Below are positions 32,213 to 48,603 of a stretch of 64,000 bases of DNA, in pieces. Each line of letters starts with the position of its first letter. The stretch's first letter is position 1. Where the stretch lies: IMG/VR virus record IMGVR_UViG_3300017917_002228, positions 1 through 64,000 of that record; one strand, given 5' to 3'. The notes below the pieces were generated by a model. The model was not told where the DNA came from. It ran no database searches and saw nothing but the letters and a program-made list of their open reading frames with translations. Source of the DNA: a virus. Position numbers and translations under genes: made by a program.

Positions 32213-32277
32213 TCTAGAAGCAACATGTTTGTCCGAGTGTTGTGGATTTACGCTGTTAAATGGTACAGCATCGGACT

Positions 32278-32399
32278 CCATTATAACTGATGAACACTAG
32301 GCTATCATACCGATTCACCGAAATCGTGACAACAGGCAAAGGTGGCGGGTACCACCGATGCAGGATGGGAAACCCTCTAGTGTTCTTCTGTTATAATGG
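32278..32399 (+). ncRNA. Candidate structured RNA (long closing stems, multibranched core)
   Basis: ccattataac/gttataatgg, gaacactag/ctagtgttc; inner hairpins cgatt/aatcg and ggtgg/ccacc. Confidence 0.5.
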
Positions 32400-32647: not shown

Positions 32648-32739
32648 GGGCGTGGGTGTTGGTACACAGGGAGAGCTTATACCTCTTCTAGCGGCAGATT
32701 ACCGTTCTCGACAGGGTTCGAATCCTTGCACGCCCACCA
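32648..32739 (+). tRNA. tRNA-Ile(UAU) with long variable arm and 4-nt D-loop
   Basis: gggcgtg/cacgccc acceptor; ggagag-ct-TAT-ac-ctcttc; TTCGAAT; ACCA. Confidence 0.8.
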
Positions 32740-32745
32740 TACTAT

Positions 32746-32819
32746 GCTGTCTTGGTGTAAAGGTAGCACACGAGTTTGTGGCACTCGTAGCACTGGATCG
32801 TTACCAGTAGACAGTACCA
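32746..32819 (+). tRNA. tRNA-His(GUG), alphaproteobacterial type (no G-1, G1-U72, A73)
   Basis: cgagt-tt-GTG-gc-actcg; acceptor gctgtct/agacagt-A-CCA; T-loop ATCGTTA. Confidence 0.88.
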
Positions 32820-32824
32820 TAGGT

Positions 32825-32983
32825 GTACCGTAAGACACAACGCTACTGAAGTGACTGGTCATCACGGGTAGGGTAGCTGGAAGACTTACGCTCTCTGGTG
32901 TTGGAAATTGACCGCCAACATTCGTAAGTTAGAGAGGCGCTGTAGCCGAGCAGCAGGCAACCGTAGGAGATACGGATCGGTAC
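32825..32983 (+). ncRNA. Candidate ~160-nt highly structured RNA
   Basis: Eight helices, crossing pairings and loop-loop complementarity (see findings). Confidence 0.6.
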
Positions 32984-33062
32984 TAATTAGTCCTTACACT
33001 CATTGGGACTTTAATGTTTATGTGTATGTTATACACAGAGTCCCAATGAGCATAATGATTTT

Positions 33063-33139
33063 GGCCTGGTAGTTCAGTTGGTTAGAGCACTAGCCTGTCA
33101 CGCTAGAAGTCGCCGGTTCGAGCCCGGTCCAGGTCGCCA
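33063..33139 (+). tRNA. tRNA-Asp(GUC)
   Basis: ctagc-ct-GTC-ac-gctag; GCCA end. Confidence 0.95.
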
Positions 33140-41417: not shown

Positions 41418-42263
41418 ATGTCTAAAATTAAAGTAGCTGAACTGTTTTACTCACTTCAAGGTGAGGGACAGTACTTAGGAACTCCAAGCATTTTTCTAAG
41501 AGTGTTTGGATGTAACTTTCAATGCGCAGGCTTTTCTATGCCTCGCGGTCAAAAATCAGAAGAACGTTTAGCAGTAGATCCTTCTAAGTATGAACGCTAT
41601 GAGGACCTTCCTCTTGTTCACACAGGGTGTGATTCATATGCTTCTTGGGATGTGCGCTTTAAAAAGCTCTCACCAATGCTTTCTGTTCAGCAGATTGTAG
41701 ATAAGATGGAAGAACTACTACCTGATGGTAAGTTTGGTAATGATAAGCATCTTATTCTTACAGGTGGTGAACCTCTTCTTGGATGGCAGCGTTCATATAT
41801 TGATCTCTTTGAAGAGATTAAAAGTCGTAGAATGAATCTTACTCATATTACGTTTGAGACAAATGGCACTCAGCCTCTTCAAGAAGAACTTTTACAATAT
41901 CTAAACACCGGTCCTTTTGATGTGACGTTTAGTGTATCATCAAAGCTTCCTTCATCTGGTGAAGCTTGGGAAGATGCAATTAAACCGGAAATTATTAATC
42001 AATACTATTGGGCTGGAACGTTAACCTATTTTAAATGGGTTGTATCTTCGCAAGATGATTATGATGATGTTATTCGTGCTGTAGAAGAATACGGCAAGGT
42101 GTGTGATATGGATGATATTCCTGTTTACCTTATGCCTGCTGGTGGTACTACAATGCACTATGATAATAATGAGAAGTGGGTTGCTGATCTTGCTATGAAA
42201 AATGGCTGGCGTTACTCGCCGCGTCTACAAGTTCAGCTTTGGAAGAATATGTGGGGTACGTAA
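41418..42263 (+). CDS. queE: 7-carboxy-7-deazaguanine synthase (radical SAM)
   Basis: ELFYSLQGEG; GCNFQC...GCDS; LTGGEP; ETNGT; PRLQ. Confidence 0.92.
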   Translation: MSKIKVAELFYSLQGEGQYLGTPSIFLRVFGCNFQCAGFSMPRGQKSEERLAVDPSKYERYEDLPLVHTGCDSYASWDVRFKKLSPMLSVQQIVDKMEELLPDGKFGNDKHLILTGGEPLLGWQRSYIDLFEEIKSRRMNLTHITFETNGTQPLQEELLQYLNTGPFDVTFSVSSKLPSSGEAWEDAIKPEIINQYYWAGTLTYFKWVVSSQDDYDDVIRAVEEYGKVCDMDDIPVYLMPAGGTTMHYDNNEKWVADLAMKNGWRYSPRLQVQLWKNMWGT

Positions 42264-42808
42264 TGGAATACATTGATACAAATATCACTAAATCTCCAAC
42301 AATGGAAGCAAGAATCCCTCGTACATACAAATACGTTTCAACAAAAGAATATCATGATGCATTTCCGTGCGCATATCGTCAATGGAGAGCTGATAGCCAT
42401 TGTAATTTGATTCATGGCTACAGCTTCTCTATGAAGTTTTATTTTGGTACAGATCATCTAGACGTTCGTAACTGGGTTGCTGATTATGGCGGTTTGAAAG
42501 AACTCAAGAAAGTTCTCGAAGATCAGTTTGATCATACACTACTAGTCGCTCAAGACGATCCTCATTTCGATGTATATAAGTTGCTCGAAGAAAAGAACTT
42601 GGCTAAATTAACGGTATTGCCTAAACTAGGATGTGAAGGGCTAGCTGATATGCTTTACAAATATGTAAACGGAGTCTACATTCCTGATATGTGGGGCCCT
42701 GGTGAAGCTGATCGTTTGTGGTGCTTCAGAGTTGAAGTACGTGAAACGCAGGCTAACATGGCATATCGAGTTGGTCATAGAGAATGGAATGAGGATTTGT
42801 TTGAATGA
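42263..42808 (+). CDS. queD: 6-carboxy-5,6,7,8-tetrahydropterin synthase
   Basis: HCNLIHGY; DYGGLK; FDHT; GCEGLA; VRET. Confidence 0.9.
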   Translation: MEYIDTNITKSPTMEARIPRTYKYVSTKEYHDAFPCAYRQWRADSHCNLIHGYSFSMKFYFGTDHLDVRNWVADYGGLKELKKVLEDQFDHTLLVAQDDPHFDVYKLLEEKNLAKLTVLPKLGCEGLADMLYKYVNGVYIPDMWGPGEADRLWCFRVEVRETQANMAYRVGHREWNEDLFE

Positions 42809-43494
42809 GTATATCTGAAAAGATTAAAAAAAGGATTAAAGATGCAGGCGCTCGCTTTCATGCCAATGATAACATTAGCGAATTTATTCGTGATAATGAG
42901 CGTGATGCACTCATTGAGGAACTAGCAACTAAGTTTGACGGGGTACTTCGTTCACTTATTATTGACGTTGATACTGATCCTAACTCAAAAGGAACAGCAA
43001 AGCGTCTTGCTAAGATGTATGTGAACGAGATTATGGAAGGCCGTTATTGGCCTGCTCCAGCTGTTGCAGCATTTCCTAACGATGGTTCTCACGGCACAGA
43101 TCCTTACAAGGGCATGCTCGTAGTACGTGCAGAACTAAAGTCAATGTGCTCACATCATCATCAGCCAGTTACAGGTACTGCATACATCGGTATCATTCCG
43201 AGCGGTAAAGTAATTGGATTGAGCAAATATATTCGTATTGCTCAGCATTGTGCACGTCGTGGTACATTACAAGAAGAACTGTGCGGTGATATTGCACAAG
43301 CTATTATGGAAGCAACTTCTTCTGGTAACGTAGCAGTTTACATTGAAGCTAAGCACGGATGCTGTGAGAATCGTGGTGTAATGGCTTCGAACAGTACTAC
43401 TCAAACTACAGTGCTCCATGGTATGTTCCACGATGCTGGTGTTAAATCAGAGTTCTATTCGAACATTCGACTACAGAAGTATAATTGCAGTTGA
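42805..43494 (+). CDS. folE: GTP cyclohydrolase I
   Basis: SMCSHHHQP; GLSK..R; LQEE; HGCCENRG. Confidence 0.95.
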   Translation: MSISEKIKKRIKDAGARFHANDNISEFIRDNERDALIEELATKFDGVLRSLIIDVDTDPNSKGTAKRLAKMYVNEIMEGRYWPAPAVAAFPNDGSHGTDPYKGMLVVRAELKSMCSHHHQPVTGTAYIGIIPSGKVIGLSKYIRIAQHCARRGTLQEELCGDIAQAIMEATSSGNVAVYIEAKHGCCENRGVMASNSTTQTTVLHGMFHDAGVKSEFYSNIRLQKYNCS

Positions 43495-43539
43495 TTTTAT
43501 TATGCTCCTATACTAGTATTAGAGGTATAGGAGATCGTT

Positions 43540-43752
43540 ATGAAAAACTTGACATCTGAACTGAAAAGCATCTACGGCGAACGTGATCTGAATAAGAAGA
43601 GAGAGCTTGCTAAACGGTTGATCGAAAATTCGCATGCGAAAACGACAACCAAAAATCAAGCTCTCTTTCTTGTTATGAATAAGTTGAGCGTAGATAAGAT
43701 TGACCGTTTTATGACAAATTATGTTTTGTCAGGTGAAGGTATGAAGGTATGA
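43540..43752 (+). CDS. Small basic hypothetical protein
   Basis: Own promoter and AGGAG RBS inside hairpin 43505-43533. Confidence 0.65.
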   Translation: MKNLTSELKSIYGERDLNKKRELAKRLIENSHAKTTTKNQALFLVMNKLSVDKIDRFMTNYVLSGEGMKV

Positions 43753-44273
43753 TCGTTAAAAAAATACCTTATGATGATGATGTTAGGAAAGCTATTTGGC
43801 CTTCCTTCAAATTATCTCTAGAAGAAAAGCATGGTAACTCAGGCGCTATCGGTCAACGAGGCGAAGAGAATGCTATTAATTTAATTCAAGAACATTTTCC
43901 TAATATGTTTCAAGTATGCTACGATCATTCAGAAGACGTAGCAGCTCAATACCGTGGTATAGACTTGACTCTTTTTCATCGACAGGGTATTATGACTGTT
44001 GATGTTAAATCAGGTAAGACTGGTCTATACTGGGATAGAGATAACAAATACTGGTATATTACTCTACGTGAAGACTTTTTTAACAAGCGCAAAAACAATA
44101 ATGCAATCATGCATGTAGGGCCTAAGGGTGATCTTTTTGCGCTCTATAATAAATCAGAAATGGAAAAGTTCTTTATTAGTAATGAAGAGCTTTTTATAAA
44201 AGATGAATATGGCTATCGTTTAAGTATGGATGATTGGCCTGACTTTATACAGCATAACCTCCGGAGATATTAA
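43749..44273 (+). CDS. Putative PD-(D/E)XK nuclease-fold protein
   Basis: GQRGE helix; GIDL; TVDVKS. Confidence 0.5.
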   Translation: MIVKKIPYDDDVRKAIWPSFKLSLEEKHGNSGAIGQRGEENAINLIQEHFPNMFQVCYDHSEDVAAQYRGIDLTLFHRQGIMTVDVKSGKTGLYWDRDNKYWYITLREDFFNKRKNNNAIMHVGPKGDLFALYNKSEMEKFFISNEELFIKDEYGYRLSMDDWPDFIQHNLRRY

Positions 44274-45052
44274 TGAAGATAGCACATGAGGCTCCTAAAT
44301 CTATTTTTGCACACGTCCAGCGCAAGACGGATTACGATTATGCGCTAGTGCATTTGTTTGAGACTGATCCAGTCTACTATCGCTTGTTTAAAGATGCAGT
44401 TATTCAAGGACGTGAAGTTATTCTCGATAACTCTATCTTTGAATTAGGTACAGCGTTTAGTGGCGACAAGTATTACAAGTGGATTAACGAACTTAAACCT
44501 ACTTGGTATATTATTCCAGATGTTCTAGGCGATAGAACAGCTACCATGGAAAGCATGGATAGATGGCTTTCTACTTATAAAGTAGAGGGTGTAAAGTCTA
44601 TTGGTGTTGTTCAAGGCAGCAATTATGATGAGGTTGTTAGATGTTATCTTGAACTAGCTCCTAAGGTTGATAAGGTTGCTATCTCATTTGATTATCAGTT
44701 CTTTGTTTCTGGTATTAATAACAAGTACGTAGACTATATGGCAGGTCGTATTAGTCTTATTAAACGTCTTTTAGATGAAAAAATTATTGATGAGAATAAA
44801 CCTCATCATCTACTCGGTTGCGGTCTACCTCAAGAGTTTCAATTTTATCGTGATATGAAATATACATTTATCGATAGCATTGATACATCTAATCCAGTTG
44901 TTCACGGATTAAATCGTATTCGTTATACACCAACAGGCTTGGCAGATAAAGTTCCTACAAAGCTTATTGAATATATGGACGAAGAAGTAACTAAAGATCA
45001 ACTTAAAGATATTGATTACAACATCGCAATGTTTAGAGAATTTTGCAAATGA
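44273..45052 (+). CDS. dpdA: DpdA-like (TGT-fold) 7-deazaguanine transglycosylase
   Basis: VILDNS; IIPDV; GVVQG; HHLLG; DSIDTS; embedded among que genes. Confidence 0.75.
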   Translation: MKIAHEAPKSIFAHVQRKTDYDYALVHLFETDPVYYRLFKDAVIQGREVILDNSIFELGTAFSGDKYYKWINELKPTWYIIPDVLGDRTATMESMDRWLSTYKVEGVKSIGVVQGSNYDEVVRCYLELAPKVDKVAISFDYQFFVSGINNKYVDYMAGRISLIKRLLDEKIIDENKPHHLLGCGLPQEFQFYRDMKYTFIDSIDTSNPVVHGLNRIRYTPTGLADKVPTKLIEYMDEEVTKDQLKDIDYNIAMFREFCK

Positions 45053-45573
45053 AATGGATAGCATTATTCAGCCAAACAGGAAGTGAGATTAACCGTATTG
45101 CAGAAGCATTAGGCCGTTGGCCTGACGCAGTTTTGACTAATAATCGCGATCTTAACGACTGGGAAGATTATATAGATCTTACCGAAACCTCTGTGTTTAT
45201 TTCTAATACAGAAGGTATTAATAATGCACTCCGTAAAGCAGATCGTGCATTTGTAACGCTACACGGATATCTTCGTATTATACCAGCCGATATTTGTAAA
45301 CGTCATAAAATATATAACGGGCACCCTGCTCTTATTAGTGAGTATCCAGAACTAAAAGGTAAAGATCCTCAAGAGCGAGTCTGGTTAGCAGGTAAGGAAA
45401 TTTATCCTAATATAGGTTCTGTAGTACATGAGTGTACACCAGAGCTTGATGGTGGTAAGATTATTAGTGTTGCGATGGATTTTAATCATTGCAATACTAA
45501 GCAAGAGTTGTATAATAAGCTTAAAGAGACTTCTCTCAAAGCTTGGACTTTCTTTCTGGAGACGCGTCTATGA
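45049..45573 (+). CDS. PurN-like formyltransferase, candidate preQ1 formyltransferase (DpdN-type)
   Basis: ALFSQTGS; LHGYLRII; NGHPAL...LKG; VH..TPELDGG.II. Confidence 0.8.
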   Translation: MKWIALFSQTGSEINRIAEALGRWPDAVLTNNRDLNDWEDYIDLTETSVFISNTEGINNALRKADRAFVTLHGYLRIIPADICKRHKIYNGHPALISEYPELKGKDPQERVWLAGKEIYPNIGSVVHECTPELDGGKIISVAMDFNHCNTKQELYNKLKETSLKAWTFFLETRL

Positions 45574-45815
45574 CTAAGAATGCTATTCGTCCTTCTCATT
45601 ATAAGGCAGACGGCTGTAAGTATGAGTGTATTGAAGTAATTGAAGAGTTGTGCGGTCTGTCTAATAATGATCGTTTTACTGATTATAATCGCTTTCAGGC
45701 ATTTAAGTACGTATGGCGTGCTGGTATGAAAGATCCTGTGTTGCAGGATTTAAAGAAGGCTAAACAGTTTATTGAATTTGCTATTGCTTACGAGGAAAAT
45801 AAAAATGTCAAGTGA
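45570..45815 (+). CDS. DUF3310 / T7 gp1.7-like putative nucleotide kinase
   Basis: RPSHY; ECIEVI; AFKYVWRAGMK; QDLKKA. Confidence 0.75.
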   Translation: MTKNAIRPSHYKADGCKYECIEVIEELCGLSNNDRFTDYNRFQAFKYVWRAGMKDPVLQDLKKAKQFIEFAIAYEENKNVK

Positions 45816-46728
45816 TATTATTAATCAACTAGCCAGCGTACATCTAGGTAAAGCGGGAGATGGTAGCGTTGTCAAACCGTATGTTACTCCTGATAATATT
45901 GATCCTTCTCTTCTTGTGCCTGTGCCTCGCCATCTTAATCGTACCGGGTACGGTATTGAAGACAATAATCTACCTTTTATTGGGTATGATACTTGGAACT
46001 GCTATGAGTTTAGTACTTTAACAAATAATGGCTTCCCAGTATCCGGTGTCATTCGAATTGTATATTCTTCTTATCAACCAAATATTGTTGAGTCAAAGTC
46101 GCTTAAGCTTTATTTGAACTCGTTCAATATGCATAAGAGTGGCACTACTATTCAAGACGTTATTGAGTTTGTAGAAGACCAGATTGAAGTAGATCTTCAG
46201 GGTATTGGTATTAGTGCATCAGCATGCTTTCATGATGAGACTGCAATCGTCACTCAACCTATTCAGGGTGACTTTTTGACTCTCGAAAACTTCTGCGACG
46301 TTGAGTCTATGACGTTTGACCACTATAATGAAGATCCGGCTATTCTTGAAGTAATTGATAATCCAGACTACTATGATAGTTGGAAGTCGCATTCATTGCG
46401 TTCAAACTGTCGTGTAACTAATCAGCCGGACTGGGGTGATGTTTATATTCATATTGGTGGTGATAAGACAGTAACTCCTGAATCACTCTTGCAGTACATT
46501 GTATCGATGCGTAAAGAGAATCACTTCCACGAAGAAATTTGTGAGTGTATCTACAAGCGTCTTCTCGATACTTTGAATCCAGAAGAGCTTATGGTTGCAT
46601 GTCTCTATACTCGTCGTGGTGGTATCGATATTAATCCTGTACGTGCAAAGAGTAACAGCACTTTGTTTAAGTATGCAGGTAATCTTATTCAACCAGACTT
46701 CCTTAATTATAAGACAATGAGACAATAA
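45805..46728 (+). CDS. queF: NADPH-dependent preQ0 reductase, bimodular type
   Basis: WNCYEFS; IVESKSLKLYLNSF; LRSNCRVTNQPDWG; FHEEICE; YTRRGGIDINP. Confidence 0.95.
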   Translation: MSSDIINQLASVHLGKAGDGSVVKPYVTPDNIDPSLLVPVPRHLNRTGYGIEDNNLPFIGYDTWNCYEFSTLTNNGFPVSGVIRIVYSSYQPNIVESKSLKLYLNSFNMHKSGTTIQDVIEFVEDQIEVDLQGIGISASACFHDETAIVTQPIQGDFLTLENFCDVESMTFDHYNEDPAILEVIDNPDYYDSWKSHSLRSNCRVTNQPDWGDVYIHIGGDKTVTPESLLQYIVSMRKENHFHEEICECIYKRLLDTLNPEELMVACLYTRRGGIDINPVRAKSNSTLFKYAGNLIQPDFLNYKTMRQ

Positions 46729-47477
46729 TGAATCTACAACAAGCGCTTGATAAACTTCCCAACACTGATCAGAACGTAGTATCGGTCCTCTCCGGAGGAC
46801 TCGACTCTACTATTATGACTTACATTCTTGTCAAGAAATATGGCAAGGATAGAGTTTTTGCTTTATCATACGACTATGGACAGAAGCAAAAGATTGAATT
46901 AGATATGGCTCGTCGTACTTGTATGTACCTCGGCATTAGTCATAAAATTCTCGATCTAGGTATTTTAGGTGAGATAGTAAAAAATGTTTCTGCTAACATT
47001 AATGGTACTGATGTCGCGATGCCTACCATTAGAGACGTTCTAGGTGATCCTCAACCGAAAACCTATGTACCGTTTCGTAATATGATCTTGAATGCTCTTG
47101 CATTCTCTTATGCAGAAGCAAATAAAGCATCTCATGTTTTTACCGGTCTTCAAGTTCACGATGAGTATGGCTACTGGGATACTACTCAGAAGTTTGTAGA
47201 TGCAATGAATGCAGTTGCTGATCAAAACCGTACTCATAAAGTTAAGATGGAAGCACCTTTTAGTCTACTATCTAAGTATGACGAATTAAAGATTGCTAAT
47301 GAACTAGGTGGAGTTAAATTAGAATATACTCTAACATGTTATAATCCGGATGAACAGGGTCGTTCATGTGGTATGTGTCCATCATGTTCAGAACGTATTC
47401 AGAACTTTATTAAAGCTGGTATGCGCGACCCGATTCCATATTCTATAGGTATTGAATGGGAAAGGTTTGTTAAGTAA
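46728..47477 (+). CDS. queC: 7-cyano-7-deazaguanine synthase
   Basis: LSGGLDS; DYGQ; YVPFRN; TCY...CGMCPSCSER. Confidence 0.95.
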   Translation: MNLQQALDKLPNTDQNVVSVLSGGLDSTIMTYILVKKYGKDRVFALSYDYGQKQKIELDMARRTCMYLGISHKILDLGILGEIVKNVSANINGTDVAMPTIRDVLGDPQPKTYVPFRNMILNALAFSYAEANKASHVFTGLQVHDEYGYWDTTQKFVDAMNAVADQNRTHKVKMEAPFSLLSKYDELKIANELGGVKLEYTLTCYNPDEQGRSCGMCPSCSERIQNFIKAGMRDPIPYSIGIEWERFVK

Positions 47478-48109
47478 TGTGTTCTATCACAGGGTCATTC
47501 TCTAAAGAAGTTGTAGCTGCGCTTGCGCAGCTCAACGCATATCGTGGTCAGCATTCACACTCAGTTTACGTCTTTGAACGTTTTACAAATAGAGTGTTGT
47601 ATGCGCATCGCGATCTAGGCGAACTTAATTTGGAAGATCATAATCTTCCAGATGGTTATATTGTAGTGCATCAACAAGCACCCACTACTGACAATAAGGA
47701 TGAGTCTTCGATTCATCCAGCTCAGATTAACGAAAACCTTTTGTGGCATAATGGTATCGTAAAAGCAGAAGAGATTAAAAATCTACAGAGTGAGTTAGAG
47801 TCTACTATTTCATGGGATACTAAACTAATTCTCCTCAAACTTATGCTATATAATTCAGTAAAGGACATTGATGGTACCTTTAGCTGTTTATGGTATGATG
47901 GAACTAATATGTTCCTATTTCGTAATGAGATTAGTCCAATGTTTATTGACGCGGACGGAAACATTTCTTCTACAAAGTTTCCAGGCTCTGAGCCTATCGA
48001 TCCAAACTTCCTCTGGATTTTTAACCCATCCTATCCTACACTAACAGAATACTTGGAAGAATTTAACACAGTTGAGAACCCTTATTTTTTTGCGGATGAA
48101 CAGAAATGA
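47477..48109 (+). CDS. Stand-alone class II (Ntn) glutamine amidotransferase
   Basis: N-terminal MCSITG; YRG; HP; WHNG; WDT; DGTF; RNEISP. Confidence 0.8.
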   Translation: MCSITGSFSKEVVAALAQLNAYRGQHSHSVYVFERFTNRVLYAHRDLGELNLEDHNLPDGYIVVHQQAPTTDNKDESSIHPAQINENLLWHNGIVKAEEIKNLQSELESTISWDTKLILLKLMLYNSVKDIDGTFSCLWYDGTNMFLFRNEISPMFIDADGNISSTKFPGSEPIDPNFLWIFNPSYPTLTEYLEEFNTVENPYFFADEQK

Positions 48110-48603
48110 TGTTGCATATTATGTCCGGTGAAACTGGATCTACACTTACTGAAGTACAAGAAGAAGATATTCAGCCTAACGCAGTTGATCTTCGTGTTGC
48201 TAAGATCTTTAAAATTAAAGAAGAAGATTTTATTATTGATAATGAAACAAAAACTCATCGTGGTTCAGAAGAGATTCATCCATACCCTTCAGGTATGTGG
48301 TATCTTAAACCAGGTACCTATGAGATTGTGATGGAGAATATTATCCATGTCGGTGAAGACGAAGCTGGTTGGGTTATTACACGATCCACTCTTAATCGTA
48401 ATGGTGTGTTTATTACTTCTGGTCTTTATGATAGTGGTTATCATGGCGTAATGGCTGGCGCTATGCATGTGACTACTGGACCGATGTGGATTAAAAAAGG
48501 AACTCGAGTAGGTCAGTTCCTTCTCTTTAAGTCACAAGCACTAAAGAAGTATGATGGTGATTATGGTATCGGCAAAGCGCACGATCAAAAGTACGGAGTA
48601 TAA
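48106..48603 (+). CDS. dcd: dCTP deaminase/dUTPase family protein
   Basis: IQPNAVDLR; RSTLNRNG; YDSGYHG; YDGDY. Confidence 0.85.
   Translation: MMLHIMSGETGSTLTEVQEEDIQPNAVDLRVAKIFKIKEEDFIIDNETKTHRGSEEIHPYPSGMWYLKPGTYEIVMENIIHVGEDEAGWVITRSTLNRNGVFITSGLYDSGYHGVMAGAMHVTTGPMWIKKGTRVGQFLLFKSQALKKYDGDYGIGKAHDQKYGV

Follow-up and report, generated by a model that had tools for sequence, protein, structure and literature searches.

Within the tRNA array of a T4-like phage lies a gene for a small RNA which, judged by the compensatory changes between its copies, is a genuine structured non-coding RNA with a nested multi-arm fold. Where the initial annotation had seen a candidate for a new class of non-coding RNA, the analysis upholds a new family among the orphan RNAs of phage tRNA arrays, and does not uphold a new kind of system. 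The RNA appears to exist in two forms, as a cassette in arrays and as a transcription unit of its own. It is small enough for direct probing, imaging and assay, and its corrected structure defines targets for mutation. A partner protein, catalysis, a ligand or self-assembly would each, if true, reveal a new function for a phage RNA.

The RNA gene and its setting

The window, that is the whole 64,000-nucleotide stretch analysed, covers the opening 64 kb of a virus record that is complete at 160,495 bases. By sequence the phage is T4-like: its major capsid protein shares 72% identity with that of Stenotrophomonas phage DLP6 and 62–65% with pelagiphage, Methylophilales-phage and cyanophage proteins. 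The virus is described as freshwater-type, and one of its close relatives comes from a freshwater metagenome. The record has genes for 23 tRNAs and for a tmRNA in two pieces (L488, record G000, 128254–128681), which matches the alphaproteobacterial tmRNA model with 118 bits and so suggests that the host is probably an alphaproteobacterium; the same model is also matched by the related T4-like records G002, G030 and G015. The RNA gene and its neighbours are arranged as follows:

32746–32819, plus strand: tRNA-His with encoded CCA, 5 nt before the RNA
32825–32983, plus strand: structured non-coding RNA gene (conserved body about 32827–32982; mature ends approximate)
32989–33060, plus strand: long hairpin, AT-rich, separating the RNA from tRNA-Asp; here in one insert with the RNA, not present beside the homologues
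33063–33139, plus strand: tRNA-Asp, downstream of the RNA

The RNA thus sits where it had been placed, at a point where tRNA processing could free its 5′-end. The tRNA-His carries an unusual T-loop, AUCGUUA, which is common to the clade and was used as a marker for finding relatives. The hairpin at 32989–33060 (−28.4 kcal/mol) is unique in the genome and was not found at the other loci examined; it may serve as a stem for processing or hold a promoter in an inverted repeat. Between close relatives the tRNA-Asp is strongly diverged at the same position (33063–33139 against 1828–1904 of the relative L227), which suggests that RNA, hairpin and tRNA-Asp may have arrived as one swapped module.

Two full homologues were found, L313 and L398, both inside the tRNA arrays of other phages. 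They are respectively 77 and 76% identical to the window copy (76–80% pairwise among the three copies), and a model for which the window copy was the sole input gives them 132 and 134 bits. The L313 copy (E 1.5e-27), in a record reached by a scan for the clade's tRNA-His, lies 2.3 kb away, between another RNA and the tRNA-Ser that it precedes. The L398 copy was reached with a pattern of the bases common to the window copy and L313; it lies between tRNA-Val and tRNA-Ser in a 26-tRNA array, in a T4-like phage with a capsid protein 74% identical. At the array end, the syntenic contig L352 opens on the final 30 bases of a further copy. All three full copies are on the same strand as the tRNAs, separated from them by short AU-rich spacers, with neighbours that differ from phage to phage. 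Among relatives reached through neighbouring proteins the RNA is accessory, most close ones having no copy: tRNA-His is followed after 7 nt by tRNA-Asp in four of them (L227, L348, L349 and L353) and by a promoter in two (L220 and L357).

Family size is to be read as a lower bound, the collection scans dating from before the better model. No relative of the RNA was found by blastn among cultured phages and plasmids, and initial pattern scans gave chance matches or none. Run on 66 related T4-like records, mostly fragments, models R1 and R2 gave two matches, both copies already known, and a pattern of the 3′-module had none in 401 alphaproteobacterial genomes.

The arrays hold other uncatalogued elements. 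A second accessory structured RNA, at 32279–32399 of the window, is closed by a long stem and stands directly before tRNA-Tyr; it is absent in L227 and, together with its tRNA-Tyr, 96% identical in L398 (region 32245–32397: folding z −3.56, no Rfam match). A mini-RNA of about 55–65 nt, which has the stem GUCCGA/UCGGAC and ends 3′ in UCCA, is 87–94% identical in three phages (window 32214–32281, L227 1435–1499, L398 5894–5959) and has no Rfam match either. A 92-nt gene at 32648–32739 has a long arm and is called tRNA-Ile(UAU)-like by ARAGORN, but scores under the tRNA cut-off of Rfam; it is conserved in L310, L312, L313 and L398. Further orphan cassettes occur in related arrays (L227 1125–1430; L313 and L398 5700–5800), and one of them, with a closing GAGAG/CUCUC stem, is common to L227, L313 and L398, its inserts differing greatly in length. 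Elsewhere in the window, ORFs with QueE-, QueD-, FolE-, QueF- and QueC-like N-terminal sequences (41418–48603) look like a 7-deazaguanine/queuosine pathway cluster, suggesting DNA modification. In a related phage (L228 13431–16657), genes for ClpX, IF3, ribosomal protein S21, HSP20 and ClpS stand in a row.

A nested four-arm fold with a kissing loop

The RNA is richer in GC than the DNA around it (53% against 39% for the window), in line with the initial annotation, and has no match in Rfam at E ≤ 10. Protein coding is rejected: in no copy is a frame of the RNA strand open across the gene, and stops occur in all plus-strand frames. Antisense action on the phage's own genes is rejected as well, the longest complement in the genome being 12 nt, as is mimicry of a tRNA, there being no acceptor stem, no T-loop and no CCA.

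Folding energy does not single the RNA out. The window copy has a z of −0.94, with 30 of 200 shuffles folding equally well, and the L313 and L398 homologues have z values of 0.37 and −0.15; comparison with homologues was therefore needed. Given the three copies, RNAalifold returned a four-arm nested fold unaided. Completed by the kissing loop, this corrected fold has 98.5% of cells paired and 10 compensatory pairs, against 30–48% of cells in slid controls. None of 500 shuffles was as good, in a test that kinship can inflate, the set being three full, related copies. It is because of these compensatory pairs that the nested fold is accepted. Its parts are:

32829–32890, plus strand: P2 arm; base helix 32829–32834 with 32885–32890, reusing strand A of the initial annotation
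between the base helix and P2a: 8 × 8 internal loop, invariant
32843–32847 with 32872–32876, plus strand: helix P2a
32851–32854 with 32862–32865, plus strand: helix P2b, 2 compensatory pairs
32855–32861, plus strand: loop L2, first kissing partner
32891–32936, plus strand: P3 arm, helix B/B′ continued by hairpin C
32891–32896 with 32931–32936, plus strand: helix B/B′, 5 of 6 pairs compensatory
32897–32904 with 32915–32922, plus strand: hairpin C, 2 of 8 pairs compensatory
32905–32914, plus strand: loop L3, second kissing partner (32909–32914 pairs with 32856–32861)
32923–32930, plus strand: A′ of the initial annotation, a variable bulge of P3 in which only the first three bases, CGU, are kept
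32939–32954, plus strand: P4 hairpin, 5 pairs, variable 6-nt loop, 1 compensatory pair
32955–32975, plus strand: linker AGGCARC and P5 hairpin with a GRAGA pentaloop, the most conserved module
32976–32983, plus strand: 3′-tail, forming a 6-pair stem with the 5′-end in the window copy only; no CCA end

The P2 base helix is invariant, with a pair probability of 0.85–0.91 in the homologues and 0.36 in the window copy. Only three full copies exist and P2, P2a and P5 do not vary among them, so that these helices show no covariation there; energy and conservation argue for them. A GAA/GUA internal loop in the P2 arm may be loop-E-like. Pairing of the 5′-end with the 3′-strand of P5 was rejected as an alternative fold, being 4–6 kcal/mol worse in all three copies. 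Variation falls in B, C, P2b, the P4 loop and the ends, and invariant unpaired bases are concentrated in the P2 loops and the linker; in a core chosen after the fact, 79 of 81 columns are invariant against 34 of 83 outside it.

The initial annotation had arranged its helices differently. All of those it named are present in the sequence (A at 32883, A′ at 32923, B at 32891, B′ at 32931, C and the two 3′-hairpins), and from their order, A-B-C-C′-A′-B′, it had deduced a pseudoknot or two-state switch; a 6-pair stem, gtaccg/cggtac, was to close the whole. Every one of these pairs can form in the window copy, where A/A′ belongs to the minimum-energy fold and has a pair probability of 0.53 against 0.36 for P2. 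The homologues tell otherwise. Even in the most favourable register, 4 of the 8 A/A′ pairs are left in each of them, with only ACG/CGU common, and strand A pairs instead with the invariant 32829–32834; the closing stem is 61% paired across copies and peculiar to the window copy; a closing helix of 3–4 pairs can be drawn in each copy, but it shifts register from one to the next. The whole earlier model has 81% of cells paired (A/A′ 45%) against the 98.5% of the corrected fold, and its zero-length linkers would make simultaneous A/A′ and B/B′ pairing difficult. Since neither A/A′ nor the closing stem is conserved, the pseudoknot or switch is rejected, and we rate it as highly improbable; the competition from A/A′ is most likely a quirk of the window copy. 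The CGU of the A′ bulge could pair with an ACG in the P2 internal loop rather than with strand A. Checked for covariation, B/B′ was thus confirmed with 5 compensatory pairs, A/A′ was not conserved, and the kiss was paired without compensatory change. The arm and first hairpin of the initial annotation, C and both 3′-hairpins are likewise kept in the homologues.

That the loops L2 and L3 are complementary had also been noticed, and this holds: there are 6 pairs in the window copy, including one G-U, and across the three close copies 100% of cells are paired, four of the pairs being invariant, two having one-sided changes and none being compensatory. Random loops of equal size, taken two at a time, match over 6 pairs in about 0.7% of trials, or a few percent when the choice of loops is allowed for. 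The kissing loop is retained as a pairing supported by the sequences, with a geometry that is proposed.

A probable distant copy, L466, comes from the 3′-module pattern, one of whose 36 matches lies in an unrelated 44-kb phage; selected by this pattern search, it scores 29.9 bits, against at most 13.3 for 34 other sites picked by the same pattern. The AGGCARC linker and P5, also present in L352, are joined here to P4 as in the full copies, with a compensatory change in P5. The B′ strand is purine-rich, 7–8 pairs form a closing stem, and the loops of two hairpins are perfectly complementary over 6 pairs, in a sequence unlike that of the close copies. In a tRNA-free lysis region, L466 takes up the 282 nt that separate a small gene from a lysozyme gene; it runs antisense to them and has a sigma70-like site directly upstream. 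Relatives of the small gene have no corresponding gap for an RNA. A second copy, 99% identical, has one change that keeps the pairing, a near-identical pair that adds little. The arms differ in length from those of the close copies and the 5′-half folds in more than one way, and membership of the family is therefore held to be probable, not more.

What the RNA may do

The likelihoods given to the following readings are judgements, not computations. We tentatively favour a stand-alone RNA, in architecture like the lysine riboswitch, that would be cut from the tRNA transcript and bind a macromolecular partner in trans. Placement on the tRNA strand, short AU-rich spacers and differing neighbours are the reasons for seeing a stand-alone gene, and the probable copy with its own sigma70-like site counts for it too; the changing neighbours exclude a riboswitch acting in cis. 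Such a gene would behave like a tRNA cassette, co-transcribed with the array. [quoted passage not shown] The long P2 arm would then bend and bring L2 onto L3, and the GRAGA loop would probably dock on an internal loop. Invariant unpaired bases in the P2 loops and linker are what a surface for binding or catalysis would show, and the surface made of the P2 internal loops, the AGGCARC linker and P5 may bind the partner, most likely a host or phage protein for which the RNA would be a decoy or regulator. The patchy distribution suggests that the RNA may help only in some hosts.

Covariation cannot separate intramolecular from intermolecular pairing, and the loops might instead join separate molecules into rings or cages like those of manA, ROOL and GOLLD, which would be compatible with binding in trans. 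There are precedents: kissing loops between molecules join manA RNAs of less than 200 nt into pentamers and cages (10.64898/2026.07.01.735769), and GOLLD and ROOL lie near tRNA islands, a ROOL kiss predicted as tertiary having turned out quaternary (PMC12286853). P2 and P3, joined without a linker, could point apart. A single loop pair was found, however, manA (RF01745) and EGFOA (RF02955) models gave no match, and the arm lengths (about 18 steps, a turn and 4 pairs against 14 pairs) would also suit a kiss within one molecule; we consider self-assembly rather unlikely. A new self-cleaving or processing ribozyme helping to cut the array, in keeping with a compact fold rich in invariant unpaired bases, is more doubtful still. 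Theta ribozymes process phage tRNAs in gut phages, mostly next to CCA-less tRNAs (PMC10879173), and like these and other HDV-like ribozymes the RNA sits 3′ of phage tRNAs, close behind the CCA end in all three arrays. But its neighbours already encode CCA, and the first conserved base follows after 7, 7 and 10 nt, not directly as with theta ribozymes. The P4-linker-P5 module resembles P1/J1-4/P4 of the HDV-like model at chance level (13.2 bits, E 7.4), as a short look-alike of P1-GGCAAC-P4; its P1-like helix, which shows covariation, encloses no more than a 6-nt loop, with no room for P2, P3 or L3, and where HDV-like ribozymes have the catalytic cytosine, at the start of J4/2, every copy has U or A. 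Our own descriptor of the nested double pseudoknot (P1, P1.1, P2, P3, P4), run without a positive control, threaded none of four copies, and RF02682 had no match in the genomes of the window phage and of L398. Identity with the HDV-F. prausnitzii (RF02682) and theta ribozymes is rejected on topology, catalytic base and position, and as no known ribozyme core fits, the earlier description of the fold as ribozyme-grade is not supported. Moreover, most relatives process the same tRNAs without the RNA, and L466 has no tRNA.

Invariant junction bases and an architecture like that of the lysine riboswitch recall an aptamer, which if free could be a sponge or sensor in trans for an amino acid, a nucleotide signal or an ion. 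With no RF00168 or RF01051 match, no expression platform and no consistent downstream gene, this is improbable, and we know of no natural precedent for a free trans aptamer. Its variant in which the aptamer, released in quantity from the array, binds and neutralises a small molecule of the host, for instance an immune or stress signal, is a little less probable again. The T-box antiterminator bulge captures the 3′ CCA end of tRNA, and the UGGA of the P2 internal loop, invariant at 32878–32881 and matched by UGG at the corresponding place in L466, might likewise capture the end of uncharged tRNAs or of tRNA-like RNAs such as the UCCA-ended mini-RNA of the same array. A motif of 3–4 bases is expected by chance, though, and there is neither a T-box match nor a specifier arm; little likelihood is left for this. 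Just as little is left for a functionless relic travelling with tRNA modules: the RNA is rare and patchy, and the neighbouring module, 96% identical between the window phage and L398, must have been exchanged recently, but at 20–24% divergence nearly all helix changes preserve pairing.

Comparison with known RNAs

The lysine riboswitch aptamer has a multi-way junction, an L2-L3 kiss, a loop-E-like motif and a pentaloop; its five-way junction is closed by P1, and it is found ahead of lysine metabolism genes, in their 5′ leader. The RNA is of similar size and has a similar plan: a long P2 arm that is interrupted by internal loops and ends in a 4-pair helix, a 6-pair L2-L3 kiss, and two short 3′-hairpins. 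In contrast, its GAA/GUA motif has its strands the other way round from the riboswitch, and it has no conserved P1 (3–4 pairs in shifting registers), its supported elements being four arms and the kiss. It does not precede lysine genes, being followed by tRNAs or a hairpin, and it carries no expression platform. RF00168 had no match at E ≤ 10 in the three carrier genomes, where positive controls matched, and membership is rejected on model and genomic context alike.

Bacterial Y RNA combines a conserved 5′/3′ Ro-binding stem with a tRNA-like domain, whereas the closing stem of the RNA is not conserved; the YrlA model (RF02553) had no match in the region, and no Ro60/TROVE gene was found in the three carriers, one of them 70% complete. 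The raiA motif (RF03072) and c-di-GMP-I riboswitch (RF01051) models had no match, and in the absence of matches manA, EGFOA, raiA, c-di-GMP-I and YrlA identities are all rejected. Like manA, EGFOA, GOLLD and ROOL, some of which oligomerise, the RNA is a phage-borne structured RNA with kissing loops; its secondary structure differs from theirs, and GOLLD and ROOL are several times larger.

Closest in genre are the T4 species 1 and 2 RNAs (rnaC and rnaD), which like the RNA are 120–160 nt non-tRNA genes in the tRNA cluster of a T4-like phage, expressed late and of unknown function (PMC9697503). Model R2 matched neither the T4 tRNA cluster, with filters off, nor the T4 genome, and homology is rejected. 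No description of the motif was found in the literature covered, outside which lie most subscription papers and motif supplements, and the family is apparently undescribed. Unlike rnaC and rnaD, the RNA is accessory, mobile within arrays and found in a different host group, and with it the orphan RNAs of T4-like tRNA arrays, a known genre in which function has been a standing question since T4 species 1 and 2, gain an uncatalogued fold.
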